Position numbers and translations under genes: made by a program
NCBI GenBank assembly: GCA_029762535.1
Contig: JARVGK010000036.1
Span: 1 to 25,422, forward strand
Source of the DNA: Thermoplasmatota archaeon
GTDB taxonomy: Archaea; Thermoplasmatota; Penumbrarchaeia; Penumbrarchaeales; Penumbrarchaeaceae
DNA: 25,422 bases
Direction: 5' to 3'
In this document: piece after piece, positions 1,297-22,790 of the stretch
Layout: the number at the start of each line of letters is the position of its first letter
Position numbering within the stretch: the first letter of the stretch is position 1
The notes under the pieces: generated by a model
Database searches by the model: none
What the model saw: the letters and a program-made list of their open reading frames with translations, nothing else
Told to the model about the DNA's origin: nothing

Positions 1297-2232
1297 ATGA
1301 AGACTGCCCCCAAGTCGTTCATGATATGCACGATAGCGCTCTGTGCTATCATCACCTTCGGTATTGGACCATCACGCGCAGATGCGGACGACGACGACCC
1401 ACTGATCAGCGTCTCCCTTGACAGCGATCACAAGGAGGCGAACGTCTCACCCGAGGACACGGGTCTGGTGATCTTCAAGGCGACCGTGGATGTGTACTTC
1501 CCGCCCGGATACGGGGACGTATGCCGGGTGGATCTGAAGGCCTGGGCGCACTGGGAAGTGTCCATGAACGGCTCGTTGAACTTCTCCATCGGCGAGGGCC
1601 CAAAGACCATAGATGTCATCGTACACGTCCCGATAAACACCTCATATGATGAGGAACACATGCTGTCGATAACCGGCAACTACACATTTTATCCCTCCGG
1701 GAAGGGCGGGGTATTGGAACATGTCTCGGCCCTCATCACCGTTTCGGAGTTCAGGCGGGTATTCATGGGGTGCAACCGTCCGGTGGTCAGCGTCAGGGTG
1801 GGAGAATGGACCCATTACGACATCACCATCACGAACAGGGGGAACTCTCCGATAACGATCGAACTGCACATAAGCTCCGATAACGGACACGTATCCACAA
1901 GGACGCCGGATGGCCCCATACAATTAACAAAAGGGGAGACCGTGAACCTGACCCTCCGCGCCAGACAGCGCCCGAGCAGGTCGGGGAGCAGCACCGTACA
2001 TGTCCTCGCCAAGGATGAAGGGGACGGCAGCACCCTTTTCGACCTCCCCCTGGTCCTCAGGACCAGGCCCGGGCTATCGACGATAATGTACGAGATGTCC
2101 TTCATCGTGCTCGTATCCCTGTTGGCCATGGTATCCTCCATCGCACTGGCCCTCTACCTCGTGGAGAGGTTCGGAAAGGGTAATGGTTCCGAGCGGGAAA
2201 AAGAGGATCCGACGGTTGGCATAGATTTATGA
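1297..2232 (+). CDS. Membrane-anchored surface protein with two Ig-like domains (resembles choice-of-anchor T proteins of Thermoplasmatota)
   Basis: AGGTGA RBS, signal peptide, beta-rich domains with an ITNRGN (CARDB/NEW3-like) motif, C-terminal TM helix. The family name is from recollection only. Confidence 0.65.
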   Translation: MKTAPKSFMICTIALCAIITFGIGPSRADADDDDPLISVSLDSDHKEANVSPEDTGLVIFKATVDVYFPPGYGDVCRVDLKAWAHWEVSMNGSLNFSIGEGPKTIDVIVHVPINTSYDEEHMLSITGNYTFYPSGKGGVLEHVSALITVSEFRRVFMGCNRPVVSVRVGEWTHYDITITNRGNSPITIELHISSDNGHVSTRTPDGPIQLTKGETVNLTLRARQRPSRSGSSTVHVLAKDEGDGSTLFDLPLVLRTRPGLSTIMYEMSFIVLVSLLAMVSSIALALYLVERFGKGNGSEREKEDPTVGIDL

Positions 2233-2272
2233 CCCCTCCAAATCTTTACCGGAAATATCAAAGGTGCACTAG

Positions 2273-2860
2273 ATGGGCGATGGATCGAACGGAAAGGGAA
2301 TGGGCATAGCGGTCATCGCTGTCATTCTCCTTGCCTCGATCGCGCTGTTCTCCCTCGGGCTCTACATCTCGAGCAGACCTGCCACGGTCCAGGGCGAAAT
2401 GGCCCCCGAGATCTCATTGACCGACGTTGACGGAAAGCGGTTCGATCTCTCCGAGCTTCGCGGGAGGATCGTCCTCGTCTGCTTCATCAACGACATGTGC
2501 TCGTATTCCTACAGCAGGGACCAGATGCGCGAGCTGAAGAACGCCACGAACGAGATAGGCTGGGACAGGCTCGTTCCGGTCACCATGAACGCAAGGATCG
2601 TGGACGAGGAACAGTTCAGGCGGTTCAGGGACAGCAACGAATGCAACTGGACGTTCGCCGTCGGCACGATGGAGGTCATATCCTCGTACGGGGCGGACGC
2701 CGAGAAGGCCCTTCCCATGGTACTTTTGGTTGACCGAGACGGAAGGATCGCATACAGGAACCAGGGATCCGTGACGGGATCGTCCGATATCGTATCCGCC
2801 TTCCGGTCGCTGGAAGAGGCAAGGTCAAGGGCCTTATACGATAGGATGGTGAACGCATGA
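2273..2860 (+). CDS. Membrane-anchored TlpA/ResA-like redoxin (thioredoxin fold) with a CxxS active site
   Basis: N-terminal TM helix; APEISLTDVDGKRFDLSELRGRIVLV; CSYS at the CxxC position; cis-Pro segment ALPMVLLVDRDGRI. Confidence 0.85.
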   Translation: MGDGSNGKGMGIAVIAVILLASIALFSLGLYISSRPATVQGEMAPEISLTDVDGKRFDLSELRGRIVLVCFINDMCSYSYSRDQMRELKNATNEIGWDRLVPVTMNARIVDEEQFRRFRDSNECNWTFAVGTMEVISSYGADAEKALPMVLLVDRDGRIAYRNQGSVTGSSDIVSAFRSLEEARSRALYDRMVNA

Positions 2861-3576
2861 TCGACAAGGTCCTTGCCGGGGCGATGATAGGTCTCTCCCT
2901 CGGAGGGGCATGGCTGTGCGCGTTCTTTGCCTTCGGCATAGGGGCGAGCAGCCGGAGGGCCGGCCTTCTATACATAGCGGGCAGGGCCATCGGGCTCATC
3001 GCGATCGGTCTGGCGATAACCGTCATCAGCATCGTCCTCAAGAGGACGGTCGGCCCCCTCATGATCGGGGGCAAGGCCATGAACGTACTCTTCGCCGTGC
3101 TGATCATCATAATGGGCGCATACCTGCTAATATCCAGCTTGGGACATTGGGTACCGCTGCCGTGGAAGAGAAGGCATCCTGGGGACGGCACGGGACCAGC
3201 ATGCGGAGGGAAGAGGGACGGCAGCGGACCCAGGGGATCGGGAGGATGCGGCCAACGGAACAAGGCGAACCCTCCGATGACCGGGGACAAGGGTCTGAGC
3301 ATGGGCACTTTCGGCCTCGGCCTTTTGAGGGGGCTCACCCCATGCGTTAAGATCCTGTTCCTCACCCCGCTCCTCATCACTTCCTCGATCATTGAATCGC
3401 TGTTCATACTCATCGCTTTCGCGGTGACTTCTTCGATATATTCCGTCATCGGCTTCATGTCGGCGGAGCTGTTCAGGAGGTTCTCCAGGTTCCAGAACGA
3501 GATAAGGATCGCGGGATCCATCATGGTCCTGCTGATCGGCATGTACTATCTCGTTAAACACATGGTCCATCTTTGA
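2857..3576 (+). CDS. CcdA/DsbD_2-like six-TM membrane protein
   Basis: Six hydrophobic helices with Cys in TM1 (GLSLGGAWLC) and TM4 (GLLRGLTPC); ATGA overlap with the redoxin gene. Confidence 0.7.
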   Translation: MIDKVLAGAMIGLSLGGAWLCAFFAFGIGASSRRAGLLYIAGRAIGLIAIGLAITVISIVLKRTVGPLMIGGKAMNVLFAVLIIIMGAYLLISSLGHWVPLPWKRRHPGDGTGPACGGKRDGSGPRGSGGCGQRNKANPPMTGDKGLSMGTFGLGLLRGLTPCVKILFLTPLLITSSIIESLFILIAFAVTSSIYSVIGFMSAELFRRFSRFQNEIRIAGSIMVLLIGMYYLVKHMVHL

Positions 3577-3593
3577 TAAAAGGAGAAGGAAGA

Positions 3594-4904
3594 ATGAGCA
3601 CGATGCGCTGCAGGGAAGAAAAACAAGGGATCGACCCGGAGCTAAAGAGGAGGATCGAGGACCATCCCTGCTACAGCGAGAAGGCCCATCACAGATACGC
3701 AAGGATACATCTTCCCGTAGCCCCGAGATGCAACATACAGTGCAATTACTGCAACCGCAAGTACGACTGCCAGAACGAGTCCCGCCCCGGAGTGACGAGC
3801 GCCGTCCTAGCGCCGGAGGAGGCGCTGGAGAGGGTGGAGGAGGTCAGCCGTGTCATGCCCAACCTCTCGGTGGTCGGCATCGCGGGACCGGGGGATCCCC
3901 TGGCGAACCCCGATGAGACCTTCAGGACCTTCGAACTCCTGCGGGATCGTTTCCCGGATATGAAGAGATGTATGTCCACGAACGGCCTCATGCTGATCGA
4001 ACATGCCGATCGCATTCATGAGCTGGGCATTGACCACGTCACCGTCACCCTCAACGCCGTGGACCCAGAGATAGGTGCCAGGATCTATTCCCATGTCATC
4101 CTTGACGGACAGAGGCATTTCGGACGAGAGGGGGCCTCCGTTCTCCTAGAGAGGCAGCTCCTCGGACTCAGAATGCTCAGGGAAAGGGCCATACTCACCA
4201 AGGTGAACATCGTCATGGTCCCTGGCGTGAACGATGATCACATCCCCGTCATCGCCCGGCGCGTGAACGATCTGGGGGCTTTCATCATAAACGTCATCGG
4301 CCTGATACCAACCCCGAATACCCCATTCGCGGACCTGAGAGGGCCTACCCCCTCCGAGAGGAAGCGGGTGCAGGACCAGTGCGAGGGCTTCATAAGGCAG
4401 ATGCGTTGGTGCCGCCAGTGCCGTTCCGATGCCATCGGGCTACTGGGGCATGATCTCTCCTCAAGCATGTTCGAAAGCGGCCCCGTCTTCGGGGAAGGGT
4501 GCAGGATGAAGAAAGATATCATTTCATCGAAAGCGGCCTCCCCGGACCTCGCCAAGGGGCCTGGAAGGATATACGTGGCCGTATCGACGATGGGCGACGA
4601 GGAGGTGAACTCGCCGTTCCCCGGCACGGGAGAGGTCCTGATATACGAGGCGACGAGGGACCACATCATGTTCCTCGAGGCCCGCGATCCATCGCGCTTC
4701 ACGTACGGTGATGGATCGGATAACATGCTCAAGGACGTCCAGGCCGTGATCGCATCGGACCTCGATGAGGAGGCGAAGGATATGCTCGCGGGGCTCGGGA
4801 TCGATGCAGTGGCGTGCTCGGGACCGATAAGGAGCGCCGTCGCAAGGTACGCCAGGGGCAAGGGTATAGATCCACCCGAGGATGATGTGGCCGGCCCGAT
4901 CTGA
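3594..4904 (+). CDS. nifB: NifB radical-SAM metallocluster maturase with a degenerate C-terminal NifX-like domain
   Basis: All NifB fingerprints present: HPC, RIHLPVAP, CNIQCNYC, ESRP, AGPGDPL, CMSTNG, TVTLN, CRQCRSDAIG. C-terminal VAVST...LIYE...FLEAR is NifX-like. Start could be 3573, 3594 or 3603. Confidence 0.9.
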   Translation: MSTMRCREEKQGIDPELKRRIEDHPCYSEKAHHRYARIHLPVAPRCNIQCNYCNRKYDCQNESRPGVTSAVLAPEEALERVEEVSRVMPNLSVVGIAGPGDPLANPDETFRTFELLRDRFPDMKRCMSTNGLMLIEHADRIHELGIDHVTVTLNAVDPEIGARIYSHVILDGQRHFGREGASVLLERQLLGLRMLRERAILTKVNIVMVPGVNDDHIPVIARRVNDLGAFIINVIGLIPTPNTPFADLRGPTPSERKRVQDQCEGFIRQMRWCRQCRSDAIGLLGHDLSSSMFESGPVFGEGCRMKKDIISSKAASPDLAKGPGRIYVAVSTMGDEEVNSPFPGTGEVLIYEATRDHIMFLEARDPSRFTYGDGSDNMLKDVQAVIASDLDEEAKDMLAGLGIDAVACSGPIRSAVARYARGKGIDPPEDDVAGPI

Positions 4905-5045
4905 TCGATACGATGTGAGTTCGAGCACGAACGGGTCCACAGCGATCCCTGGACCGCGTCTATGTTAAATAGAACGAACCGTATCCCTTTTTCCGCGGGC
5001 CGATCGAAACCGAAGCACGATCGTCGACCCGCAGCCGGGGATAGC

Positions 5046-6005
5046 ATGAACGAGAACAGGAAGATCTGCCTTCTCATAGATGGTGACAACATATCGGCCA
5101 GGTACATCGTCCCGATAATCGATGAGATGAACAGGCACGGGGACCTCATGATCAAACGTATTTACGGGGACTGGACAACGAGCGAGATGAAGCAGTGGAA
5201 GGACATACTTTCCCGTTACGCGATAAGACCAATTCAGCAGTTCAGGACCGGGCCCAACGCCACGGACAACGCCCTCATCATGGACGCCCTGGAGGTCACC
5301 TACACGAACAGGAACATCGACACCTTCGCCATCGCCTCCTCCGACTCCGACTTCTACGGCCTGTTCATGAGGCTGCGGGAGCACGGTTATTATGTGATGG
5401 GCATGGGATCGAAGGATTCGAACGAGCTTTTGACCAAATCCGCGAACGATTTCATCTACCTCGAGAACCTCCTGCCCAAGGAAGAACCAAAACAGGCCCA
5501 GAGGAAGAGAACGGAGAAGGCCAAGGAAGGGGATGAGCTGCGGGATATCATAGAGGACACGTGCAGGAAGATCGACGCGGAAGAGAACGAATGGATACAT
5601 CTTTCCTATTTCGGTGAGATACTAAAGAAGAACCATCCGGATTTCGACCCCAGGTCCTACGGCCACAAGCAGCTGCTGACCATAATCCGCTCGTATCCCG
5701 ACCTCCTGGAGATCTCCACCGGGGAGTTGGACAAGACATATCTCGTACGAATACAAAGAGGAGTGGCCGGGGATGAGGACAGCAGGACGGGGACGGTCAT
5801 CCGGTTCGGGCCCTATTACGGATTCATCCGGTCCGACGAAGGCGATTACTATTTCCACGTCACGAACCTCAAGGACCCCGAAAGCTCAAAGCATGTCAGA
5901 GCCGGGACCAAGGTGGCCTTCAAGGTGTTCAGGAAACCGGACCCCACATCGACCTCGGGGGAGGAGAAGAACGGCAAGGCCTCGGAGGTCGAGCTGTTGC
6001 GATGA
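5046..6005 (+). CDS. NYN-domain RNase with OST-HTH/LOTUS and C-terminal cold-shock domains
   Basis: LLIDGDN, RIYGDW, NATDNALIMDA, SSDSDF (NYN); GEILKKNHPDFDPRSYGHKQL (LOTUS); YGFI...YFHVTNL (cold-shock RNP motifs). Confidence 0.9.
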   Translation: MNENRKICLLIDGDNISARYIVPIIDEMNRHGDLMIKRIYGDWTTSEMKQWKDILSRYAIRPIQQFRTGPNATDNALIMDALEVTYTNRNIDTFAIASSDSDFYGLFMRLREHGYYVMGMGSKDSNELLTKSANDFIYLENLLPKEEPKQAQRKRTEKAKEGDELRDIIEDTCRKIDAEENEWIHLSYFGEILKKNHPDFDPRSYGHKQLLTIIRSYPDLLEISTGELDKTYLVRIQRGVAGDEDSRTGTVIRFGPYYGFIRSDEGDYYFHVTNLKDPESSKHVRAGTKVAFKVFRKPDPTSTSGEEKNGKASEVELLR

Positions 6006-8499: not shown

Positions 8500-9075
8500 T
8501 CAACCACCTCTGTTCCTGTAAAGCGATAGATCGATCGCGTCCCTCATCGAGTCCGCATCTATGTCCCCGTCGAAGAGGTCCCTGATCTCCTCGAAGCTCT
8601 GGTCGGGGTCGGATAGCAGCTCGTTGTAATTGATATAGGCCACCCTCATGTTCTCCGATGAGTTCACGAGCCCCTTGAGGTTCTTGAGATAGGTCCGATA
8701 CAACCTTATCAGCTCATCATCGGGTATGACGTCTGGATCCTCGCCCCTCCTTATCATCATCTTCTTCTGGGACGATACGATCTCGTCGAGGTCCCTCATC
8801 ATGAACACGACCCTGTACTCGAAGCCGGATGGAAGGTGCTTCATCAACTCGCCCAGGACCTTCACCGCCCTGCCCCTGGCCTCCGGCAGCCAACCTTGGT
8901 CCCCGGGCAGCTTCTTCACCCTCTCGAACTCGTAATATCCTTTGGGATTGTCCACATCGGCGGTCCTGACATCATCCTTGAGGGGGGCGATCCCCCCCTT
9001 ATCGAGCATGCTCATCATCAAGGACGTTCCCGACCTGGGAAGGCCTGTCACCACCGTTATGTAATCCCTGCCCAT
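8500..9075 (-). CDS. PAPS-dependent sulfotransferase family protein
   Basis: 5'-PSB loop GLPRSGTS, NPKGYYE, 3'-PB motif MMRDLDEIVSS, terminal YNELL. Confidence 0.9.
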   Translation of the reverse strand: MGRDYITVVTGLPRSGTSLMMSMLDKGGIAPLKDDVRTADVDNPKGYYEFERVKKLPGDQGWLPEARGRAVKVLGELMKHLPSGFEYRVVFMMRDLDEIVSSQKKMMIRRGEDPDVIPDDELIRLYRTYLKNLKGLVNSSENMRVAYINYNELLSDPDQSFEEIRDLFDGDIDADSMRDAIDLSLYRNRGG

Positions 9076-9085
9076 AGATCATCAC

Positions 9086-9619
9086 TCATTCCATCAATCC
9101 GAGCTGTTTCACCTTTGATATGATCGCATCGACCTCCTGCTCGAGCGTCATCTCGTGGGTGCGCAGGACGAGGTCCGGCTTCAAGGGCTCCTCGTAAACT
9201 CCATCGTAGCCGGTGAGGTTCGTGATCTCGCCCTTGATTGCCTTGGCATAAAGGCCCTTTGGATCCCTCTTTATCCTTACCTCTTGCGTGGTCTCGAGAT
9301 AGACCTCCATGAATTCGCCGATCTCCTCCCGGGCGAAATCCCTGACGGCCCTGTAAGGGGATATGAGCGATACCACGTTCGGGACGCCGTGCTTGGTCAG
9401 GAGCCGGGCGTGATTGATAACTACCCTGTTGTGCATCTCCCTGGCCTCTTTCGAGAAACCTATGTCCGGATACAGCTGTTTTCTCACCGTATCCCCGTCG
9501 AAGACCTCTATCGGGAGGCCCATATCGGAGAATCTCCCTTTCAGGCCCTCGGCCAGGTAGCTCTTTCCGGCCCCGCTGGGCCCCGTCAACCATATCGTGA
9601 ATCCTTTTCCGTCGCACAT
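9086..9619 (-). CDS. cysC: Adenylyl-sulfate (APS) kinase
   Basis: IWLTGPSGAGKS, DGD, SLISPY, RDPKGLY, TGYDGVYEEP. Confidence 0.96.
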   Translation of the reverse strand: MCDGKGFTIWLTGPSGAGKSYLAEGLKGRFSDMGLPIEVFDGDTVRKQLYPDIGFSKEAREMHNRVVINHARLLTKHGVPNVVSLISPYRAVRDFAREEIGEFMEVYLETTQEVRIKRDPKGLYAKAIKGEITNLTGYDGVYEEPLKPDLVLRTHEMTLEQEVDAIISKVKQLGLME

Positions 9620-10567
9620 CTAATTGCCTCCGTTCATCCTGTATATCTCCTTGAACATCAGATCCCTCAATTCCTCCACCCTTTCTCGACCGTGCACCAC
9701 ACCGACGACGTCGTCCTTGCCACCGGCGTTGAAGCCCATCGCCTTCAATCTCCTTATCAGACCGCCCATGTCCATCGTGGACGGGTCCCGGATCCTGAGG
9801 TAGGTCTGCGCCCTTCCGTTGAAATCCCGGTTGATGGCCAGCGCCGCGTCGCAGCCCTCTTTGGAGACCGCCTTTCGGGCGAGCTTGCTGATTATATTGA
9901 ACCGGTGCTCGAAATCCAGGACCATCACCCTGCCGTGCATGATGCCCGCGTCGAAAACGTCGCGCATCGCATCGCGTATGCGTTCCACATTGGCGTTGAG
10001 CCCTGGGTCCTCGAGAAGGCGGTCGATGTCGTCCAGAGCGCGTACCGATGCCTCCACGGAATCCTTGTCCCCGACCACGTAACTGGAGTCCAGAAGCCTG
10101 ACCGCTCTCTGGAATTCCTCCGGATCGCGGCCCGAGGATGCGAACGCTCTTTTAAGCAATGGGTGGTCGAGCGCCTTTATACCCACATCGCCGAATGCTC
10201 CCAGAACGGATAGATCATCCCATGAGGAGTAGGTCTCCGAGACGACGGTGCTGCAGGAGGGATAGTCTGCCTGGTTGGCGCCATCTTTCACCGGATTGAC
10301 CTGACGCACCCCCGGGATCTGATCCTGGGGCTGGTGATGGTCGATGAAGGTTATGTCCGCGCCCGGCAGGTCCAGGCCCTTGGTTATGTTGAGGTCGAGG
10401 ACGAATATCGGCCCCTTTTCGTTCCTCATCGCCGTAATCATCCCTTCATCGAACTCGAACTCTCCTATCTCCGGGGTCATGTTAATGAAATGCTCGGGCT
10501 TGAATATCCGGACGATCTTCGCCGCCGAGCATATGCCATCCGTGTCCCAGTGATGGATGATGAGCAT
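9620..10567 (-). CDS. DHH-family phosphoesterase, probable PAP (3'-phosphoadenosine 5'-phosphate) phosphatase
   Basis: HHWDTDG, LDL, IDHH and C-terminal AGGK (DHHA1); lies between sat and cysC. Confidence 0.85.
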   Translation of the reverse strand: MLIIHHWDTDGICSAAKIVRIFKPEHFINMTPEIGEFEFDEGMITAMRNEKGPIFVLDLNITKGLDLPGADITFIDHHQPQDQIPGVRQVNPVKDGANQADYPSCSTVVSETYSSWDDLSVLGAFGDVGIKALDHPLLKRAFASSGRDPEEFQRAVRLLDSSYVVGDKDSVEASVRALDDIDRLLEDPGLNANVERIRDAMRDVFDAGIMHGRVMVLDFEHRFNIISKLARKAVSKEGCDAALAINRDFNGRAQTYLRIRDPSTMDMGGLIRRLKAMGFNAGGKDDVVGVVHGRERVEELRDLMFKEIYRMNGGN

Positions 10568-10571
10568 GCTT

Positions 10572-11717
10572 TCACTCCACGAAGGGGTTCTCGAAGGAGC
10601 GCAAGGCGTCGAAGACCTCCTTCCTCATGTGATGCGGTTTCGGGACCTCGCCCGTTTTGAGCATCTCCCTCATCTTGGTCCCGGAAAGGGAGTCGTGATG
10701 CTCCTTGGGGTGGGGGCATATCTTCGCATTGACGATGTTCCCGCACTTATGGCAGTAGAAGAAAGCCTGGAAGGCCATGGGTTCCATGCCTAGATCGGGG
10801 AACTGCTTGAATATCTCCTGCGCTTCATAGGGCCCGTAATAGTTACCGACACCTGCATGGTCCCTTCCGATAATGATATGCGTGCAGCCGAAGTTCTTCC
10901 GCATGATGGCGTGATGTATGGCCTCCTTGGGGCCCGCGTACTTCATCTCGTAGCGGAGGATGGACATGTGCGTGATCTCCTTGGGGAAGTAATGCTTGAT
11001 CAGCTCCTCGTAGGTCTTGAGTATCACGTCATCCCTGAAATCGCCTGATTTCTTCTTCCCTATGACCGGGTTTATGAACAAACCGTCCACGAAGGTCGCC
11101 GCGGTCTTCTGCAGGAACTCGTGGCCGACGTGGGAGACGTTCCTAGTCTGGAACGCGACAATGGTCTTCCAGCCCCTCTCGTTGAAAAGGACCCTCGTTT
11201 CGTGAGGGGTCAGGTAATGGTCCGGGAAAGGCGCATCCATTTCGGCGATCTGCTCCAGCTCCCCTCCGATCAGGGTATCCCCCATCTCCATCACGCGCTT
11301 GACGCCTGGATGGGCGGGATCCTCGGTCCCGAACACGGACCGGGCATAACCGGCCTTGTCGTATGTGTATATGTCCTCCACATACATCCTCGCTATCGGC
11401 TTACCCCTCGAGAGCAGGATCACGGAATCCCCCTCCTCGAAATCGATGGACCCCCTGTCCATGTCGAGCACCGATGGGATCGTCCAGGGGGTGTCGTCGG
11501 GGAGCCTCATATCCACCAGCACCGACTGCAGTTCGTCGGACATCATGAAACCCGACAGCGGGGAGTAAACCCCATCGGCAATGGACATGACGTCAACAGC
11601 GTTAACGTCCCTTATCTCGATCTTCGGGTACTCCCCGATCTCCTCGAGTACCCTGTCCCTGACCTTTTCGCCAAGCTTCCTTCTGACCAGTTTTCCACCG
11701 TGCGGCCTGTTGACCAT
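10572..11717 (-). CDS. sat: Sulfate adenylyltransferase (ATP sulfurylase, homo-oligomeric Sat type)
   Basis: PHGGKL, FQTRNVSHVGH, YAGPKEA, GRDHAG, Zn site CHKC...CPH, SGTKMR. Confidence 0.97.
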   Translation of the reverse strand: MVNRPHGGKLVRRKLGEKVRDRVLEEIGEYPKIEIRDVNAVDVMSIADGVYSPLSGFMMSDELQSVLVDMRLPDDTPWTIPSVLDMDRGSIDFEEGDSVILLSRGKPIARMYVEDIYTYDKAGYARSVFGTEDPAHPGVKRVMEMGDTLIGGELEQIAEMDAPFPDHYLTPHETRVLFNERGWKTIVAFQTRNVSHVGHEFLQKTAATFVDGLFINPVIGKKKSGDFRDDVILKTYEELIKHYFPKEITHMSILRYEMKYAGPKEAIHHAIMRKNFGCTHIIIGRDHAGVGNYYGPYEAQEIFKQFPDLGMEPMAFQAFFYCHKCGNIVNAKICPHPKEHHDSLSGTKMREMLKTGEVPKPHHMRKEVFDALRSFENPFVE

Positions 11718-11733
11718 CGTATCACTCCGTGTA

Positions 11734-11961
11734 TCAATCCAGATAGCCCAGTGCCCTGAGCCTGTCCTTCACCCGGTCCTCCTCCTCCTTGGAGAAGACC
11801 TCTTCCGATGTTCCCTCCTCGAGAGATGCCAGGACCTCCCTGAGAACGTAGGTAACGTAATCGGAGACCGATGTGAAGCCCGTCCCCTCTATCCTCTTCT
11901 TTATGTTCCTGTACAGCGGGGTCGGTATCGAAACCGTCGTATGCTTCCTTTGCTCGGGCAT
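11734..11961 (-). CDS. CopG/RHH protein with an acidic linker and RLRALGYLD tail (paralog 2)
   Basis: TTVSIPTPLYRNIK...GFTSVSDYVTYVLRE; GAGGTGG RBS upstream of ATG 11961. Confidence 0.88.
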   Translation of the reverse strand: MPEQRKHTTVSIPTPLYRNIKKRIEGTGFTSVSDYVTYVLREVLASLEEGTSEEVFSKEEEDRVKDRLRALGYLD

Positions 11962-11980
11962 TTTGGACCACCTCGATCGA

Positions 11981-12027
11981 TGAATGCGTCTTAATGACAT
12001 TTAATGCGATTGCATGAAGATATATAA
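11981..12027 (-). promoter_or_regulatory. Promoter of the RHH-sat-DHH-cysC-sulfotransferase-RHH operon with a candidate operator array
   Basis: TTATATA box (12021-12027, minus strand); near-palindrome TAATGC-GATT-GCATGA at 12002-12017; AATG/CATG repeated every 10 bp. Confidence 0.65.
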
Positions 12028-12044
12028 TATTTATCCCGGTGCTG

Positions 12045-12827
12045 TCAGTTGATAAGGAACACCGAACAGGGCCTCTTCCTCGCGAAGCCGGACCTGAGGT
12101 GGAAATATCCCTTCTTGCCCATGCGTCCTATGACTATCAGGTCGAGCTTATTCTCGTTCACGATCTCTCGTATGGAGCTCTCGGGCCTTTCCTTGATCAC
12201 CTGCTCGAACCTGATCCTGCGCGAGGAAACGACCCCCTCGAGCGCCTCCTCGGTGTTTTCCGCCTTCGGATCCGCTATGAAATAGGACCTCAAGGACGCG
12301 TTCGTCGCGGACCTGAGCGCCTTGGCCGCATCGATCAGCCTATCGCTTTGCCGGGTATCCGCCAGGAACAGAGCGATCCTTTTGATCGGGCGGTCGTGTC
12401 TCTCTATCCAAACAGGGACGGTCGAACGGTCCATTACCCGATATTTCAACAGGTCGTAGGATCCGTATTCCATCATCAAGGCGTCGGCTTCGAACTCATC
12501 GACCGCCCCCAGTATCGTCTCGGGGATCGGTCCCTTCCTGACGACGAACTCTTCTGGTCTGGAGCCCAGGATCTCGGCCACATTTTTCTTGATGATCCTC
12601 TTTGCGACCTGCTCCTGGGTCCTGACCATATTTCTTTGGAACATCTCCTTGTCATGCTCCGTGAGCACGTGCATCACCTGCTCCCCGACGTCATCATACA
12701 GCGTATCATCGATGAAATACGAGATGATCAGCCTACTGCCTATCATGGCCGAGAGCTCGGCGGACCTCTTGAGCGCCATTTCGGGCAGACCTTCCTTCGT
12801 GACGGGGACCAGCAACCTCTTGAACAT
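12045..12827 (-). CDS. Tandem universal stress protein (USP)
   Basis: MFKRLLVPV start, two USP-like halves, DLIVIGRMG, CSVFLIN end; TGATG overlap with the DASS stop. Confidence 0.88.
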   Translation of the reverse strand: MFKRLLVPVTKEGLPEMALKRSAELSAMIGSRLIISYFIDDTLYDDVGEQVMHVLTEHDKEMFQRNMVRTQEQVAKRIIKKNVAEILGSRPEEFVVRKGPIPETILGAVDEFEADALMMEYGSYDLLKYRVMDRSTVPVWIERHDRPIKRIALFLADTRQSDRLIDAAKALRSATNASLRSYFIADPKAENTEEALEGVVSSRRIRFEQVIKERPESSIREIVNENKLDLIVIGRMGKKGYFHLRSGFARKRPCSVFLIN

Positions 12828-14209
12828 CACCAAACACCTATCCATTTCCAGTAAGTATAGACCACGACGAGCATTATTGCAACTGTAACCGCATTGGCGA
12901 TCATCCCTGCCTTGAGCATGTCCCTGGGACGGAAATAGCCCGAGGAATAGGATATGAGGTTCCCGGGTGTCGAGAACAGGAACATGAACGCGAGCCCTCC
13001 GGAGAGACCTACCAGCATCGAGCCCATCTCCGGGGGCAGACCTGATGCGATGAACACCGCGAAGCCGATGGGAAGCAGTATGGACACCGCGGCCGTGTTC
13101 GACATGAACTCCGTCAGGACCTTTGTCAGGACGATCATCAGCAGTATCGAGAGCAGGGCGCTCCCGGATGTCAACAGGATGACCTTGTCCGCAAGCCAGA
13201 GAGCGGCCCCCGAATCGGCGAGATGTATGCCCATGGATATAGCGCCGCCGTACAGAAGGATTATCCCCCAGGGTATCCTCTCCTCCACTTCCTTCCATCT
13301 CATCCCCCCTGCGATGAATATCATGATCGCCCCGATCAAAGCGATGATGGACAGTTCGACATCGATGAGCTGGGGTAGGAATATGAACATGGCTATTATC
13401 AAGGCGAGGACCGCGATGATCATCTTCTTATTCCAACCGGGTGATGGTATCTGCTTCAGCTCATCGCCTATGACGCTCCTGGCCCTCTCCACATTCGCCC
13501 TCTCCGGGGGAAAGACGAGTATCAGGACCATCCAGACAGCGAACAGAGATAGTATCACAATAGGCAGGGAAAGCGTCATCCATCTCAGGAAGTCCACCTC
13601 GATCCCCTCGAGCCTGAGGAACGCTATCGTCAGAGGGTTTCGCGCTCCCCCCAGGGGCGTTCCCAGGCTTCCGATGGTGCAGCCGTAGGCCGCCCCTATC
13701 ATCATCCCCTTGGCGAGATTGCTCTTCAGGGGCACCAGCCCCATTCCTAATATCGTATAGGTCAGGACAGGGACGATCAGTATGATGACGCCATGCTCGG
13801 GCATTATGAACGAGAGCAGGGCCCCGGAGACCATTGTCCCGAGGACCATGAGCCTCGGCGAGGATCCCATGGCCTTGAGGAAGACGAGGGAGACCCATCT
13901 GTGCAGATCTGTCCTCTCCACGGAGGAAGCGATTATGAACGCGCCTATGAGGAAGAACACCGCGGAGTTGCCGAAGGATTGGAAGGTGGACCTCACCGTT
14001 GTCGCACCCAGAAGCAAGGGGAGTATAAGAACGACGATGCCCGCAAGGCCAAGGGGGATGGGCTGTAGAATGAAGACGGCAGCGGCGAATACGAGAACGC
14101 CGAACATCGCCTGGCCCTCATATGACAGACCGTCGGGCCTGGGAAGGACGAGAACGATGAGGAGCAGCAGGATCGGAAGGGCGTACTTCGCTGCTTTCCT
14201 CATATCCAT
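12827..14209 (-). CDS. DASS/SLC13 sodium:sulfate (anion) symporter
   Basis: FFLIGAFIIA, GSLGTPLGGARNP, IPWGIILLYGG, LTEFMSNTAA, STPGNL; start at MDMRK after GGTGG. Confidence 0.93.
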   Translation of the reverse strand: MDMRKAAKYALPILLLLIVLVLPRPDGLSYEGQAMFGVLVFAAAVFILQPIPLGLAGIVVLILPLLLGATTVRSTFQSFGNSAVFFLIGAFIIASSVERTDLHRWVSLVFLKAMGSSPRLMVLGTMVSGALLSFIMPEHGVIILIVPVLTYTILGMGLVPLKSNLAKGMMIGAAYGCTIGSLGTPLGGARNPLTIAFLRLEGIEVDFLRWMTLSLPIVILSLFAVWMVLILVFPPERANVERARSVIGDELKQIPSPGWNKKMIIAVLALIIAMFIFLPQLIDVELSIIALIGAIMIFIAGGMRWKEVEERIPWGIILLYGGAISMGIHLADSGAALWLADKVILLTSGSALLSILLMIVLTKVLTEFMSNTAAVSILLPIGFAVFIASGLPPEMGSMLVGLSGGLAFMFLFSTPGNLISYSSGYFRPRDMLKAGMIANAVTVAIMLVVVYTYWKWIGVW

Positions 14210-14338
14210 CAAAACCACCCGATCCCAGGTTCCCTGTGTATGCAGGCCGATTTCCCTTCCTCGGATTTGAAGGTTGCGCTCTCCAGGTCGGTTCTCATTA
14301 TCGTCATGTCGAACAGATAGAGTTCCAATCGTTAATAA

Positions 14339-14367
14339 TATATAATGCCATTGCATTACATTACATT
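14339..14367. promoter_or_regulatory. Divergent DASS/sbp promoter with a candidate operator
   Basis: TATATAA at 14339-14345; perfect-arm palindrome TAATGC-CATT-GCATTA at 14343-14358; CATT four times at 5-bp spacing, ending just before the sbp ATG. Confidence 0.65.
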
Positions 14368-15360
14368 ATGACAAAAAGATACCTTATGCCCCTGGCAATG
14401 ATCCTGCTGCTGCCAATGATGTCGGGATGCCTCGGCGGTGACGATGACTCGGGCACCATAGTGCTCTATGGCTTCTCCGTCAAGGGAGAGCTTATCGACG
14501 ACATGGTGATCCCGGCCTTCCGGGAGAGGTACAAGGCCGAGACCGGGGAGGACATCAAGTTCCAGACGGTCTATGCCGGGTCTGGGACGGTGACCAAGCA
14601 GGTCATCGTCGGTGCCCCGGCCGAGGTCATGATACTCTCGACCGAATGGGACGCCCTCCAGCTGCGCGATGCCGGGCTCGTAACGACGGATTGGAGGTCC
14701 TACCCACATGAGGGGACCTTCTCCACATCCCCCTGGGTGATATTGACGAGGCCGGGCAACCCCAAAGGCATCCATGACTTCAGCGACCTCGCCCGTTCGG
14801 ATGTGCGCCTCGTATCCGCGGATCCCATCACCTCAGGAGGCGCCCAATGGTCCATATTCGCGATATACGGGTCGGAGCTGAGGAGGACCTCCGCGATCGA
14901 GGGATCCCCCAACGAGACTCGGGCGGTCGAACTATTGGATGATATCGTCGATAATGTGGACAGCTGGCAGGAATCCGCGAGAAAGGCGCTCTCCCAGTTC
15001 GTCTTCGGATACGGGGACGCCTTCATAACGTACGAGAACGAAGCGCTTCTGGGGATGGCGCAGGGGGAGAAGTTCGAGATCATCTATCCTCATTCCACTA
15101 TACTCTCGGAGCACAAGGCGATAGTGGTTGACGAGAACGTCGATGAGAAGGAGAGGGGGGCGGTGGAGGCGTTCATGGAATACCTGTTCTCGGACGAGGT
15201 GCAGAATATGCTATCCGTTTACGATTTCAGGTCACCGGATGAGAGCTACAACGACGGCTTCGAACGAATTGAAGACCCGTTCACCGTCGAATATCTGGGC
15301 GGCTGGGAGATCGCCAAACCGGAGATAATAGACGGAATATACGCACCGATGCGGAGGTGA
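14368..15360 (+). CDS. sbp: Sulfate ABC transporter substrate-binding lipoprotein
   Basis: MSGCLG lipobox, GSG, GNPKGIHDFSDL, DPITSGGAQW, GDAFITYENEA; probably a leaderless start. Confidence 0.92.
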   Translation: MTKRYLMPLAMILLLPMMSGCLGGDDDSGTIVLYGFSVKGELIDDMVIPAFRERYKAETGEDIKFQTVYAGSGTVTKQVIVGAPAEVMILSTEWDALQLRDAGLVTTDWRSYPHEGTFSTSPWVILTRPGNPKGIHDFSDLARSDVRLVSADPITSGGAQWSIFAIYGSELRRTSAIEGSPNETRAVELLDDIVDNVDSWQESARKALSQFVFGYGDAFITYENEALLGMAQGEKFEIIYPHSTILSEHKAIVVDENVDEKERGAVEAFMEYLFSDEVQNMLSVYDFRSPDESYNDGFERIEDPFTVEYLGGWEIAKPEIIDGIYAPMRR

Positions 15361-16190
15361 GACCGTTGCCGGAGACGCGAAGCAGGCTCTCGCCGCTCTT
15401 AAAATGGTCGATCGTCAGCTTCGGCATCGTCTGCTTCATCCTCATCATAGTGCTCCCCGTTTCATCGATGTTCAAATTCGCATTAGAGGATGGACCGTAT
15501 GGATTCTGGAAGGCGATAACCACGGAAAACGCCCTCAACGCCCTCAAGAACTCGCTGCTGATGGCGTCCCTGGCGACCGGCATCAACCTGGTTGTGGGGA
15601 CGACAATAGCCTTCTCGCTGACCAGGTACCGTTTCCCGGGATCATCCATATTCAGGGCTCTCATCGACCTCCCGATAGCGATCCCCGCATCGGTCGTGGG
15701 ATTGGCATTGATGATGTTATACGGACCCAAGGGCCTTCTGGGGCCGTTCTTCGAATCGAACGGGATCCAGATCATATTCGATCTGCCGGGGATCGTCCTC
15801 GCCCACGTATTCGTCACTTTCCCTTTCATGGTCAGGGCGGTCTCCGTGGTCATCGAGAAGTTCGACCATGACCTGGAGGATGCGGCGGTGACGTTGGGGG
15901 CCAATGGGTTCCAGACCTTCTTCAGGGTGATGCTGCCCTCGATAAAAAGCGGGTTGATCGCAGGGTCGGCCCTCACTTTCACCAGGTCCTTGGGGGAGTT
16001 CGGAGCCACGCTGATAGTGTTCGGAGGGGCCATGCACCTGAGGACCGGCCCCCTCTACATGTACTACCTTTCGGACTCGGCCTTCGATTTCCAGGGGGCC
16101 ACCTCTGTGGCTATATTGTTGATGGTGGTCCCGTTCGTGCTCCTTTTGACCGTCAACGCGATAGTGAGCAGGATGGAGGTGTCCGGATGA
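15357..16190 (+). CDS. cysT: Sulfate ABC transporter permease
   Basis: RYRFPG, LIDLPIAIP, FVTFPFMVR, EDAAVTLGA (EAA loop), RSLGEFGA. Confidence 0.88.
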   Translation: MRPLPETRSRLSPLLKWSIVSFGIVCFILIIVLPVSSMFKFALEDGPYGFWKAITTENALNALKNSLLMASLATGINLVVGTTIAFSLTRYRFPGSSIFRALIDLPIAIPASVVGLALMMLYGPKGLLGPFFESNGIQIIFDLPGIVLAHVFVTFPFMVRAVSVVIEKFDHDLEDAAVTLGANGFQTFFRVMLPSIKSGLIAGSALTFTRSLGEFGATLIVFGGAMHLRTGPLYMYYLSDSAFDFQGATSVAILLMVVPFVLLLTVNAIVSRMEVSG

Positions 16191-17188
16191 GAGCCGACCT
16201 CTCCCTGGATGGCATATCAAAGGCGTTCGGAGGCGAAACGGTCCTCAAGGACCTGGACCTGACGGTCGAAGAGGGGAAGATGGTATCCATCCTCGGGCCG
16301 TCGGGTTGCGGGAAGTCCACGACCCTGAGGATAATATCGGGCCTGGTCCGACAGGACCGGGGGGCCGTGAGACTGGGAGGGAAGAGTCTTGACAACGTGC
16401 CTCCCCACAAGAGGAGGATAGGCTTCGTCTTCCAGAGCTATGCTCTGTTCCCACACCTGGACGTGGAGGAGAACGTCAAGTTCGGGATGAAGGTGGGGGG
16501 TATGAAGAAGGAGCATGTCAAGAGGCGGACGGACGAGCTCCTGGAGCTTGTGGGAATGTCGGACATGAGGGGAAAGAGACCGTCCCACCTGTCCGGCGGA
16601 CAGAAGCAGAGGGTGGCGATAGCAAGGGCGCTTGCCATAGACCCTCAGGTCCTGCTCCTTGACGAGCCCTTCGGTGCCCTGGATGTGAAGATAAGACGGA
16701 GGCTCAGGAGGGACCTCAAGGCCCTCCAGAGGGATCTGGGATTGACTTCCGTCTTCGTGACGCACGACCAGGACGAGGCTTTCGAGCTTGGCGACACCAC
16801 GGCGGTCATGAACAATGGGAGGATAGAACAGATAGGCAGGCCTCGGGATCTGTACGAGAGGCCTTCGACGAGCTTCGTCGCGCGCTTCGTAGGCAACGTG
16901 AACGCCATAGAGCTTCCGGGAGGGGATCGGACCACGGTAATGGTCAGGCCGGAGGACATCGTCATGATGCATTCCTCCCCGGATCGCAAAGGCGGGGTCA
17001 AAGGGACATTGATAAATTATGTGTATCTGGGGCCGATCATCGAATGCAATGTGAGGTTGACCAACGGCGAATCGTTGAACGTCATCATAAGCCGGGAGGA
17101 GTTCAGGATGAGGAATTACCGCAGGGGCGACGAGGTGAACATAATCATTCGGAAGTTCAGTTCGTTCAGCGATGAGGAGGGGGTATAG
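16187..17188 (+). CDS. cysA: Sulfate ABC transporter ATP-binding subunit with a TOBE domain
   Basis: GPSGCGKS, LSGGQKQR, LLLDEPFGALD, FVTHDQDEA, VRPED. Confidence 0.9.
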   Translation: MRADLSLDGISKAFGGETVLKDLDLTVEEGKMVSILGPSGCGKSTTLRIISGLVRQDRGAVRLGGKSLDNVPPHKRRIGFVFQSYALFPHLDVEENVKFGMKVGGMKKEHVKRRTDELLELVGMSDMRGKRPSHLSGGQKQRVAIARALAIDPQVLLLDEPFGALDVKIRRRLRRDLKALQRDLGLTSVFVTHDQDEAFELGDTTAVMNNGRIEQIGRPRDLYERPSTSFVARFVGNVNAIELPGGDRTTVMVRPEDIVMMHSSPDRKGGVKGTLINYVYLGPIIECNVRLTNGESLNVIISREEFRMRNYRRGDEVNIIIRKFSSFSDEEGV

Positions 17189-17412: not shown

Positions 17413-20400
17413 TCACTCCTCGATGACAGGCTCTGTGGGATAGACCCTGAGATAAGGCCGCCTCCGCCTCAGGGCCATGAACATGACAAATATACTGAAG
17501 AACAAGATGACCGCAAGGGAGATCGCAAGATAAAGGGGCCATTTCGCCGGCGAAGGAGGATCCCTCTCGCGAACATCAACGCTCTCCCAAGGACCGGTAA
17601 CACCATAACCCTCGATCCCCACATAGAACACATACCTGCCCGCATCCTCGAAGGTTATATTGTGATACCTGCCAGGTGATGAATAGATCACAGATCCTTC
17701 GAACCTGACCTCAAGGACAAGGGAAAGAAAACCGGGATAATCATAATACCACACGTTCACGGCCACCGTGTCGCCCACCCGATGATCGGATGGCCAGGGA
17801 TCGAGATCGATCCGGATACCGATCCCCGTCAGGTTCAGACCCACTACGACCTCCATCTCATATGTGCCGGATGCACCGCCCACTACGGATACCGTGATGT
17901 TGAAAAAATATCTACCAGCATCCCCGATCACAGGTTCGAGGATCAATCGGCCTCCGCTAATGGAAGCCCATCCCGGGGCGGATACGAGAGAATAAGATAA
18001 TGTCCCGTTCTTCGCGTAATCAGTCAGGATCGAAATGACGATAAGATCGTTCTCACGGAGGTTGATGGACTTCTCGTTCAACAGAGCAGGGGGATCGCCC
18101 ATTCGTACATCGATGTGCAGCGAAATATCGATATGTTCGCCGCCGGGATCGAAGGCGCGCAGAACAAGAGAATGTATGCCTACATGATCATCCCTGGGAG
18201 AAAACCTCAGCATGTCATCCTCGATGGATATCCAGACATACTTGCTCTCCACTAAAGAGTAGGAGATCCTCTCCCCTTCGGGATCCGCAACGCCCGGATC
18301 GAACGTAAACACGTCCCCGCACTCGACCATCAGATCGATCCTCTCCGGTCCCGTAGGAGGTTGGTTCCGGACCATCACGTCAAGAGGAAATGAATAAAGG
18401 GCATAGGACCCGTTGTTATCCGATACATTGATGTCAACCCATTGACGGCCAACATCGGTACTTACCGGATTTATCAGAAGAAGACCCTCATCGTCTATGG
18501 AGCATAGGCCTTTGCCAGACCAGGACGCGTTGAAGGAGAACGTATTCTGGTTCGGATCGTAAACCGTTATGAGGTATTCGAAAGGCTCGCCCACATACGC
18601 CACGCTCGCGTTCACCTCCAATATCACGGGAGGGACGTTGAACGGTATGATCCTTATGAAGACCTCAATGAAGCTGACGGAACCGTTATTATCCGAGGCC
18701 GAGATAACGACGCTCCAGACACCAGTATGATCCGCCCGGGCACGGAAAAAGAGCATGTTCCCGTAAAGAACCGAGACGTTGAACGGGGCGTTCTTGCTGT
18801 GAACACCCAGCTCGACCGGATCCCCGTCCGGATCGAAATAGGTCAGGAAATACCTTGTGGGCTCATCCGGATACGCCACGATCTCCTCGACAGGATCTAT
18901 CACCGGATTCCGGTTCACTCCGATCCTGAACTCGGTCCAGTTACGGGTCCCGTTGTTGTCGTTCGCGGTGATGTTGAAGGTTGTGTATCCCTCGTACTCA
19001 TCGGTTCCAAGAAAAGAGAAGGCTCCAGTCAGGGGATCCAATTCGAAGAATACATCCCTCGATGCTTTTATCTCGAAGGTGGGAGTGTCACCGTCGGGAT
19101 CGTATGCCTCGAAGGTGATGTTCAGCCGCTCGCCGGAGTTGATCCTGTACAAATCCTGAACAGACCCTATCTGCACCCTCCTGTTCCAGGGTTGACCCCA
19201 TGGTACGATGAGGGGCAAGTGATCGATAGAATCGTGATCTATGATCACAGGATTATCCACGATCCCGTTCCCGTCCCAATCCGTGTAGTTCTCGATCCCT
19301 GTCCAGTAATTGCCCCAATCAGGATCGTTGAAGGAGTTGGATCCGTTATCGATCACATGGATCGAGTTGTCCATGAAGGAATTCTTGAATATTCTCGTCG
19401 TTTTCGTATCGTTCAGCTTCATCGCGATCCCGTTATCGATAAAGACGTTATCGTTGATCCTCGAATCCGAGGATCCCTCCATCCTCAATGCGATGTCGTT
19501 ATCCTCGAAAACATTCCCATAAATCCTTGTCCTGGTGGACTTTAAGTCAAATATTGAGCACATTGATCCTTGAAAAAATGTAGAATGTATTTGTAATTGA
19601 TCTGATTCTTTAGAATATACCCCCAATGAGATATTATCAAGTGATTGGTTCTTTATTATCATACCTTTTGTCTTGATTGTATGTATAGCATATGTAGAGT
19701 TTCTGATATGATTTCCATCCAATACCATCAAGATCCCCAATTCAATATGAAATCCATAGTTCACATTGGATACGATATTGTTATTGAAGTTTGACCTCCC
19801 ACGATAAAAATAAAATCCATAGTTCACTTCATTTATTGAGTTATTGAAAATATCTGCATATACTTCTCCTGTATGTCCTGCTACGTTCAGATCAATATGG
19901 AAAGCTGTATCGGCTCTAAAAATTGTATTGTTGTAGATCGATATATTACGATCCTTCCATAACGAGTCCGAATTTGGTCTTTTAAGGATGAAACCTGATC
20001 TTGCATCCATGATTTTATTGGATGAAAGTACTAATTGGGTGAAATATGTGATATCCACGCATATCTTTGATGAGATAATAATATTATTTTCAATCTCTAA
20101 AAAGTAATTTGAAATCCCAGCTATTGCCGTGTCAGATATATTATTGAATGTATTTCTAACTATTCTTGTACGATAAGTTGGTATTCCGTGAATACCGTAT
20201 GTACATGATATGAATGTATTGTTTGTAATATATACTTTATCTATGTATTTATTTTCTGTTGATATCTTACTTTTTCCGATCATTATTGCACTGTTAGAAA
20301 TATTTTCAAAATGTGAATTATTTATCCTGTGATTATAATATATTGAATTAATGATATTGTTGAACAGATGTATCCCATTATTAGAACAATTATGAAAATT

Positions 20401-20940: not shown

Positions 20941-20970
20941 AATGATCCCTATATTATCACTCCGTTATAT

Positions 20971-22638: not shown

Positions 22639-22790
22639 AGGCACCACTTCCTAATTAGACCGGATCGTATTTGACGGGATCGAATACATCCCCCCGGATG
22701 CACGCATTTCTTTGTTTTCGGCTCCGGTCAAGGGAATATAAGTCCAAATAATATATAAAACCACCGAAAAAAACCCCAAAAATAAATATA

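Follow-up and report, generated by a model that had tools for sequence, protein, structure and literature searches.

What does NifB serve in an archaeal genome in which neither a nitrogenase nor MCR is found? The question is raised by a 25,422-nucleotide (nt) stretch of DNA, hereafter the window (contig JARVGK010000036.1 of assembly GCA_029762535.1; our contig C32 of genome G000), from an uncultured Thermoplasmatota sediment metagenome-assembled genome (MAG). The window carries a nifB gene directly downstream of a gene for a six-transmembrane (6-TM) protein, which in turn follows a gene for a thioredoxin-fold protein. Canonical NifB fuses two [4Fe-4S] modules, K1 and K2, into a carbide-containing [8Fe-9S-C] cluster. 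An earlier note, made from the DNA letters, had proposed that this chemistry serves a client other than nitrogenase. From sequence comparisons, and with confidence that is about evenly balanced, we favor what appears to be a functional and maintained NifB module with a dedicated membrane partner in a non-methanogen in which no nitrogenase gene was found, and whose client would be neither a nitrogenase nor MCR. The features of the three-gene unit are listed below, with lengths in amino acids (aa).

2273..2860, + strand: thioredoxin-fold protein with a membrane anchor (TlpA/ResA/AhpC-TSA type), 195 aa (PF00578, PF08534)
2857..3576, + strand: 6-TM membrane protein, DsbD_2/CcdA-like (LysE superfamily), 239 aa (structure model, fold and feature searches)
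3580..3589, + strand: Shine-Dalgarno-like sequence AAGGAGAAGG, 4 nt before the NifB ATG (direct reading of the sequence)
3594..4904, + strand: NifB, 436 aa, radical-SAM catalytic domain and diverged C-terminal NifX-like domain (TIGR01290)
4596..4853, + strand: NifX-like (Nitro_FeMo-Co) domain of NifB (PF02579, 22.9-26.5 bits against a cut-off of 26.3)

The NifB of the window is a genuine, intact member of its family, with all radical-SAM, K1, and K2 ligand residues. It scored 438 bits against the TIGR01290 equivalog, for which the cut-off is 343.65 (436 bits in the genome-wide search), and it also matched Radical_SAM and, weakly, a NifX-like domain. Its scores against solved structures were 327.6 bits for 6Y1X and 265.7 bits for 7BI7/7JMA. 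The protein contains the motifs HPC, ARIH, CNIQCNYC, DCQNESRPG, CMSTNG, and CRQCRSDA, and the ligand motifs lined up residue for residue with 6Y1X, 7BI7, and 35 other NifB sequences. This alignment bears out the claim that the radical-SAM triad and the K-cluster motifs are all kept: the CxxxCxxC triad, K1 (Cys33, Cys66, and Cys133), and K2 (His46 and Cys270/280/283) are complete (P0003 numbering). The NifX-like domain is marginal (PF02579, 22.9-26.5 bits), and the precomputed Pfam annotation of the protein’s cluster gives PF04055 only.

Outside its own lineage, the closest NifB comes from a Chloroflexi MAG (P0005; 50% identity overall and 63% over the catalytic domain), followed by Methanomassiliicoccales and cyanobacterial NifBs (56–61% over the catalytic domain). 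The ortholog at locus L026, in a near relative, is 92% identical. In a maximum-likelihood tree, the window and L026 NifBs sit on a long stem within the bacterial-type NifB-NifX set [Shimodaira–Hasegawa-like approximate likelihood ratio test (SH-aLRT) support of 97], apart from the Methanomassiliicoccales of their own phylum and with Chloroflexi and cyanobacteria as bacterial neighbors. This placement suggests horizontal acquisition. In the Chloroflexi MAG (L061), the closest homolog stands beside a stand-alone NifX-like gene amid primase, reverse-transcriptase, and PIN genes, remote from that genome’s nine PF00148 genes. Stand-alone NifX-like (PF02579) genes also occur in G000, where two lie near an Mrp/MinD-like P-loop gene on contig C20 (10583-16636; L002, L056, and L057). 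Similar NifX-like genes are present in same-family genomes without NifB; the pair on C20 is therefore not NifB-specific.

The three genes are closely joined. Rereading of the open reading frames and junctions confirmed the coordinates that had been given for them, as well as the ATGA overlap of the redoxin and membrane genes at 2857-2860 and the 17-nt gap between the stop codon of the membrane gene (3574-3576) and the ATG of NifB at 3594 (open reading frame 3573/3594-4904). Overlap and gap together suggest co-transcription and possibly coupled translation. GC content is level across the NifB part of the window. Against the L026 orthologs, NifB and the membrane gene had ratios of nonsynonymous to synonymous substitution rates of 0.16 and 0.15, respectively, and the redoxin gene had a ratio of 0.32, low values that indicate purifying selection on all three.

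Every known recipient family of the NifB product is unaccounted for in this genome. G000 comprises 2.96 Mb in 102 contigs, is 93.4% complete and 1.1% contaminated, and contains an archaeal small-subunit rRNA. Searches of the window with Pfam and NCBIfam profiles found no nif, anf, vnf, or mar genes beside nifB itself. Across the 93.4%-complete genome, there was no NifH-type protein (the best matches were P-loop fragments at 27–28 bits) and nothing above the cut-off for PF00148, the family of NifD/K/E/N-type proteins. One candidate for a hidden NifD-like gene, on contig C4 (PF00148, 22.7 bits), proved to be a Pyr_redox_2, thioredoxin-reductase-like flavoprotein. The genome likewise had no match to McrA, McrC, or Mmp7 (PF02249, PF04609, and TIGR03274), all of which were matched in control methanogens; this negative matters because L-cluster-like centers are known in both McrC and Mmp7. 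The smallest set of genes needed to fix nitrogen comprises nifH, nifD, nifK, nifE, and nifN besides nifB (PMC3464626), and of this set the genome holds NifB without NifH or PF00148 partners, a shortfall that bears on the physiological role of the protein and not on its family membership. The orphan status claimed in the earlier note thus held when the search for nifH/D/K-like genes was extended to the whole genome, and no nif, anf, vnf, or mar cluster turned up elsewhere in the 93.4% that is represented.

We placed this result in a sample of 401 genomes of the phylum, 23 of them from the window’s own taxonomic family (f1). NifB was present in all sampled genomes of Methanomassiliicoccales-like families (family f11, for one, with 48 of 48) and in none of the 23 sampled f1 genomes. 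Outside the methanogen families, NifB or a NifB-like protein was found in G000, G027, G028, G033, G035, G044, G051, and G072. Among these eight, only G044 has NifDK-like genes, which adjoin its NifB; there was no PF00148 match in G027, G028, G033, G035, G051, or G072, and G033 is a single 3.6-Mb contig. A further MAG labeled Methanomassiliicoccales (G404, 1.5 Mb; L062) has a NifB-NifX gene amid housekeeping genes and no PF00148 match whatever, which is unexpected in a methanogen. Methanogens require CfbD. The gap in G404 may reflect incompleteness or a non-methanogenic lineage.

These data bear directly on the simplest explanation, which is that NifB serves ordinary nitrogen fixation and that nifHDK(EN) lie in the unassembled ~7% of the genome. 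A MAG that is 93.4% complete and split into 102 contigs leaves room for such a loss; moreover, the closest NifB homolog (P0005) comes from a genome with nine PF00148 genes, and G044, of the same phylum, has its NifB beside NifDK-like genes. Nevertheless, we consider this explanation very improbable. The assembly would need to lack both NifH and a complete nif cluster, of 5 kb or more, the NifB of the window lies in an operon with a membrane protein and not in a nif cluster, and NifB is found in 0 of 23 genomes of family f1. Furthermore, six other NifB(-like) genomes of the phylum, including the single-contig G033, lack a PF00148 match, as does a Thermoplasmata MAG (G401) described below.

The conserved neighbor of NifB across distant lineages is the 6-TM protein, not the redoxin. 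Locus L026 repeats the whole neighborhood of the window, and L028, also from a near relative, has the three-gene order as well. In at least five other lineages, the gene immediately after the membrane gene is NifB or a short NifB-like gene. At L027, L063, L064/L065, and L067, it is followed, with an overlap or a gap of 3–45 nt, by a radical-SAM gene of 271–291 aa, and these short NifB-likes score 249–313 bits on TIGR01290 over the catalytic part. The neighbors rnpA, yidD, yidC, and jag mark L064/L065 as bacterial, and the 1.1-Mb genome that contains L067 (G402) has no PF00148 match. The short NifB-likes form a clade of their own (SH-aLRT 99), which includes unlinked copies from G027, G028, and G035. 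In the tree of the membrane family, the window protein and all NifB-paired proteins fall in one subclade (SH-aLRT 94), and the solitary copies of family f1 fall elsewhere. Thus, the recurrence that the earlier note had left to be settled is real: the trio is kept in L026 and L028 and the membrane–NifB pair in distant lineages, so the arrangement is not confined to this genome. At L027 (4009-12237), an open reading frame longer than 2743 aa runs off the contig; it starts 180 nt past the 225-aa gene that follows the membrane–NifB-like pair.

The two families also tend to occur in the same genomes. Strong matches to the membrane family were found in 14 of the 401 phylum genomes. Five of the eight NifB(-like) genomes from non-methanogen families contain it vs. 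9 of ~330 genomes without NifB, and none of ~62 methanogen genomes with NifB does; these counts are uncorrected for relatedness. The sole copy in G000 is the one beside NifB.

Chance adjacency has to be weighed against this pattern. NifB could have been acquired horizontally and have no tie to an upstream pair for extracytoplasmic thiol-redox or metal handling, and such a history would fit a NifB of bacterial type next to a membrane protein of other origin, a redoxin that accompanies NifB in near relatives only, and a membrane family that has contexts without NifB. However, the order of membrane gene and then NifB(-like) gene recurs independently in at least five other lineages, with overlaps or 3–45-nt junctions, the paired membrane proteins form a single subclade, and the membrane family is enriched in genomes with NifB(-like) proteins. 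An operon at L079, described below, ties the membrane family to a canonical NifB, and in the window itself the ATGA overlap and 17-nt gap hint at co-transcription and possibly coupled translation. We therefore regard incidental neighbors as unlikely.

The redoxin is a more local companion. The window, L026, and L028 are the only loci at which it precedes the membrane gene, and we rejected it as a general partner of NifB since it is absent from every membrane–NifB pair beyond these near relatives. It scored 44.2 bits on PF00578 and 41 bits on PF08534, both above cut-off, its PDB matches are ResA and thioredoxin (Trx)-family proteins, and a hydrophobic helix is visible at the N terminus of the translation. 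The active site is degenerate (C76-S-Y-S-Y-S81): in an alignment with 3HDC, C76 takes the place of the first Cys of WCPYC and S81 that of the second, with a two-residue insert between them. The motif is identical in L026. With Ser at the second Cys position, this is a single-cysteine Trx-fold protein and not a CxxC oxidoreductase. The name “redoxin” is hence apt for the Trx fold and the AhpC-TSA/Redoxin profiles but not for the missing CxxC (C-SYSY-S). A dithiol relay of the CcdA/TlpA type, which had been inferred from the gene pair, fails on two counts: the Trx-fold protein has a single Cys, and it is missing from all other membrane–NifB pairs.

The 6-TM protein reads as a new branch of the LysE/DsbD superfamily. 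The window protein (P0002) had no Pfam match even at E values up to 10, the CcdA/DsbD/DsbD_2 profiles PF02683 and PF13386 included, and no NCBIfam match, and two family members (P0145 and P0147) have a weak precomputed DsbD_2 match only. An exhaustive HMMER search among 1.84 billion proteins recovered a family of 88 representative clusters; a word-indexed search gave three relatives. In an alignment of 36 family members (A1), in which C21 and C163 are kept in at least 90%, the conserved positions are C21, G42-R43, G155-x-x-R158-G159-x-T-P162-C163-x-K165, P171, S192, and Y195. Cys, His, and Gly are often abundant in the variable central loop. An AlphaFold2 model [predicted local distance difference test (pLDDT) score of 79.3 and predicted template modeling (pTM) score of 0.72] has six membrane helices, and the first helices of its two halves, TM1 and TM4, are broken near C21 and C163. 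The protein thus has the six helices in a 3+3 repeat, with one Cys in the first helix of each repeat, that characterize CcdA/DsbD.

Structure comparison placed the model less firmly. CcdA (5VKV) was the top match of Foldseek against the PDB, with TM-scores of 0.46–0.48 and an E value of 0.37, which is in the chance range for helical bundles. VIA-align gave Z scores of 8.2 for CcdA over 193 aligned residues and 9.0 for RnfA, both in the noise range for helical bundles. In the ESM Atlas, the matches by shape were MntP, NicO/DsbD_2, DsbD_2, and LysE at TM-scores of 0.58–0.70, and the nearest clusters by features were DsbD_2 (0.90–0.91). “CcdA/DsbD-like,” the term used before, is a fair description of the predicted architecture, with its 6-TM fold, its Cys residues in TM1 and TM4, and its likeness in features; it does not extend to a Pfam match, and membership in the family is not demonstrated.

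The membrane family leads to a second Fe-S system. In other Thermoplasmatota, it is encoded in an operon in the order FG-GAP beta-propeller, membrane protein, NapH/MauN-like membrane polyferredoxin (two Fer4_5 domains and a dicluster domain), and HGD-D family protein. We found this operon at at least 12 loci, which were sought with degenerate DNA patterns on the RGATPCLK motif and are therefore biased to the operon-type subfamily. The operon HGD-D protein is closest to the double-cubane cluster protein DCCP (6ENO/7YYL, 256 bits), whereas subunits of benzoyl-CoA reductase and hydroxyacyl-CoA dehydratase reach just 84–88 bits. At the contig end L079, in MAG G401, a canonical NifB with the motifs HPC, CNVQCKFC, and DCVNETRPG starts 3 nt past the DCCP stop codon, and the G401 genome has no PF00148 match. 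A NifB-like gene lies 3.2 kb beyond DCCP in G051, and the gene after NifB in G033 encodes a more distant HGD-D paralog. An ortholog of that paralog, which reaches only 31.5 bits on the DCCP model, is found on contig C9 of G000 in the company of 2-oxoacid:ferredoxin oxidoreductase genes.

DCCP homologs are present in 39 of the 401 phylum genomes, and G000 has its own DCCP-like system. On contig C8 (1-8134; L085), seven or more genes that overlap by 4 nt form an operon; they encode two PQQ-like propellers, one WD40 propeller, one FG-GAP propeller, a NapH-like protein, a DCCP-like protein, and an HgdC/DCCP-R-type ATPase whose gene is truncated by the contig end. The membrane gene is absent from this operon. 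The DCCP-like protein scored 235.7 bits to 7YYL_C over its full length, with the cysteines aligned. On NF040772, the C8 and L079 homologs scored 344.5 and 318 bits, just below the cut-off of 350. A double-cubane reductase of the C8 type, driven by ATP and coupled to a membrane polyferredoxin and a whole set of propellers, appears to be undescribed.

In these sister operons, the NapH-like polyferredoxin follows the membrane gene at the place that is held here by NifB(-like) proteins, which are also multi-cluster Fe-S proteins. This exchange raises the question of whether NifB has been repurposed in the polyferredoxin’s stead, making no [8Fe-9S-C] cluster and acting, on a membrane redox chain, in multi-[4Fe-4S] electron transfer or another radical-SAM role. 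The loss of a K1 ligand in short paired NifB-likes and the decaying NifX-like domain would agree with such a change. For the window NifB, we nevertheless find it quite improbable: every ligand and motif of an L-cluster synthase is in place, and the catalytic domain is 56–63% identical to those of cyanobacterial, Chloroflexi, and Methanomassiliicoccales NifBs. Moreover, the NifB of a nitrogenase-free methanogen supports diazotrophy (bioRxiv 10.1101/2023.10.20.563283).

Under the reading that we favor, NifB would still fuse two [4Fe-4S] modules and insert the carbide, on the precedent of the NifB of a nitrogenase-free methanogen, and its L-cluster-type 8Fe product would pass to some client other than nitrogenase or MCR. 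The membrane protein probably serves cytoplasmic NifB at the membrane as a thiol/electron conduit; alternatively, it might be a conduit for the supply of Fe and S, in the form of Fe, sulfide, or sulfite. The paired intramembrane cysteines and the alternative partnership with a NapH-like protein favor the first role, and the invariant Arg and Lys and the Cys-rich loop, which is predicted to be cytoplasmic, leave room for the second. The single-cysteine Trx-fold protein would be a genus-level outward extension on the outer face. The most plausible recipient in G000 may be the DCCP-like system on contig C8, a speculative choice made because the membrane family normally resides in a DCCP operon and one such operon ends in NifB. 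Taken further, NifB might deliver or remodel an 8Fe-9S(-C) center for a DCCP reductase wired through the NapH-like and DsbD_2-like proteins. This arrangement would amount to a nitrogenase-like trio of cluster synthase, ATP-driven reductase, and 8Fe catalytic protein on a non-NifDK scaffold, and the membrane protein would be an accessory to NifB in general, in archaea as well as in bacteria; we put this scheme forward tentatively and judge it unlikely.

Several observations weigh against the favored reading and its extension to DCCP. The MAG is in 102 contigs, with ~7% missing. The paired short NifB-likes belong to a divergent clade and the window NifB to the bacterial NifB-NifX proteins, which may reflect repeated origins of the pairing or an exchange of partners. 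In three of the short paired NifB-likes, the K1 ligand equivalent to Cys66 is missing, and the chemistry of these proteins may therefore differ. The membrane family is also found in the absence of NifB (in G034, in G046, as the solitary f1 copies, and in family f30), and its likeness to CcdA/DsbD is at the fold level only (Foldseek E value and VIA-align Z score in the chance range). DCCP is present in 21 of the 23 f1 genomes, none of which has NifB, and hence can do without NifB; the pair-bearing G402 has no DCCP match, and hence the membrane–NifB pair can do without DCCP. These NifB-free f1 genomes and the DCCP-free G402 rule out DCCP as an obligatory or universal client. The link between DCCP and NifB consists of a single case of direct adjacency, another of near adjacency, and a membrane partner that both have in common.

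Two more genes flank the unit.

1297..2232, + strand: choice-of-anchor T surface protein, 311 aa (NF041740, 92.7 bits against a cut-off of 70)
4962-6005, + strand: NYN/OST-HTH protein, downstream of NifB

In the list of open reading frames of the window, the five genes from 1297 to 6005 all have the + orientation. The surface-protein gene may be the first gene of the unit: it ends 40 nt upstream of the redoxin gene, its position is conserved in L026, and a homolog (24% identity, E value of 5.5e-13) adjoins the solitary membrane gene of same-family relatives (L074). Besides NF041740, the protein has weak Ig-like and FixG_C matches.

Further downstream, a sulfur-activation block (8500-17188) encodes a sulfotransferase, an APS kinase, a DHH-family phosphoesterase, an ATP sulfurylase, a Usp-domain protein, a Na+/sulfate symporter, and an ATP-binding cassette (ABC) transporter of the sulfate/thiosulfate type; L026 retains it from the sulfotransferase through the symporter. 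Sulfite can be the source of the ninth sulfur of the L-cluster in vitro, and given this possible source, the block may deserve attention. A nearby molybdate transporter was ruled out, the ABC system at 14236-17188 being of the sulfate/thiosulfate type. A stretch of low GC content (17413-22647; 0.32–0.45 vs. ~0.57 elsewhere) encodes a 1175-aa NosD/beta-helix/Big_9 surface protein and a clostripain-family (Peptidase_C11) protein and may be a horizontally acquired surface-protein island.

Work published since 2023–2025 has made clear that the NifB carbide cluster is used outside nitrogenase, in MCR activation (bioRxiv 10.1101/2023.10.20.563283; PMC12176620). The literature that we searched describes no further non-nitrogenase user. 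The locus brings together a canonical NifB without nitrogenase-family or MCR-activation proteins, a conserved but uncharacterized membrane partner, and, in DCCP, a candidate client, and it thereby provides defined genes for asking whether a carbide-containing 8Fe cluster reaches a protein that is neither Nif nor Mcr. The membrane family is a genomic handle for locating more NifB-dependent systems, and the question is relevant to the early evolution of complex Fe-S cofactors. In practice, nifB by itself is an unsafe marker of diazotrophy in metagenomes.

The system is not a nitrogenase, a methylthio-alkane reductase (Mar), an MCR-activation system, or a classical CcdA–TlpA relay. It resembles Mar in that MarB of MarBHDK is a NifB homolog that serves an enzyme other than dinitrogenase. 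Mar requires MarH, MarD, and MarK, which are members of the NifH and PF00148 families, whereas no member of either family was found in G000.

A close precedent is the NifB of methanogens, which is reported to be universal and essential there, including in those without nitrogenase (bioRxiv 10.1101/2023.10.20.563283). In the same study, the NifB of a nitrogenase-free methanogen supported diazotrophy, so that protein still makes the cluster. Two proteins of the MCR activation complex, McrC and Mmp7, have been seen to contain L-cluster-like [8Fe-9S-C] centers (PMC12176620). Like the Methanothrix thermoacetophila protein (6Y1X), the NifB of the window has all ligands and lies outside a nif cluster in a nitrogenase-free archaeon. 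In contrast to methanogen NifB, it has a NifX-like domain and branches among bacterial sequences, it is accompanied by a membrane partner that is not mentioned in that literature, and the MCR-activation client is not available to it, because no McrA, McrC, Mmp7, or CfbD-type protein was found. The proposal of a non-nitrogenase client in the earlier note stands as regards an intact, orphan NifB without a nitrogenase-family gene, but the idea was not new, methanogens having McrC and Mmp7. Use of NifB outside nitrogenase is already known; the conserved membrane partner and the connection to DCCP operons are undescribed.

With CcdA–ResA/TlpA, the system shares a 6-TM protein with Cys residues in broken TM1 and TM4 helices (TPC in TM4) and a membrane-anchored Trx-fold neighbor. 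It differs in that TM1 lacks the proline of the PC motif, Arg and Lys are invariant beside the cysteines, the Trx partner has C...S instead of CxxC, and there is no context of cytochrome c maturation; the conserved neighbor of the membrane family is NifB or a NapH-like polyferredoxin. DCCP, finally, has an [8Fe-9S] center and is driven by ATP, as nitrogenase is (PMC9351452, PMC7317905). Neither of these two papers connects it with NifB, a term that is absent from the review PMC7317905, and in the literature that we searched only three papers mention both double-cubane clusters and NifB. Close homologs of the Carboxydothermus hydrogenoformans DCCP/DCCP-R system (6ENO, 7YYL) are encoded on contig C8 of G000 and at L079 (235 and 256 bits to 7YYL/6ENO, with aligned cysteines), with an HgdC-type ATPase in G000. 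Unlike the known DCCP, the archaeal protein is encoded in operons that also specify propellers, a NapH-like polyferredoxin, and, except on C8, a member of the membrane family; at L079, the gene that follows is NifB.

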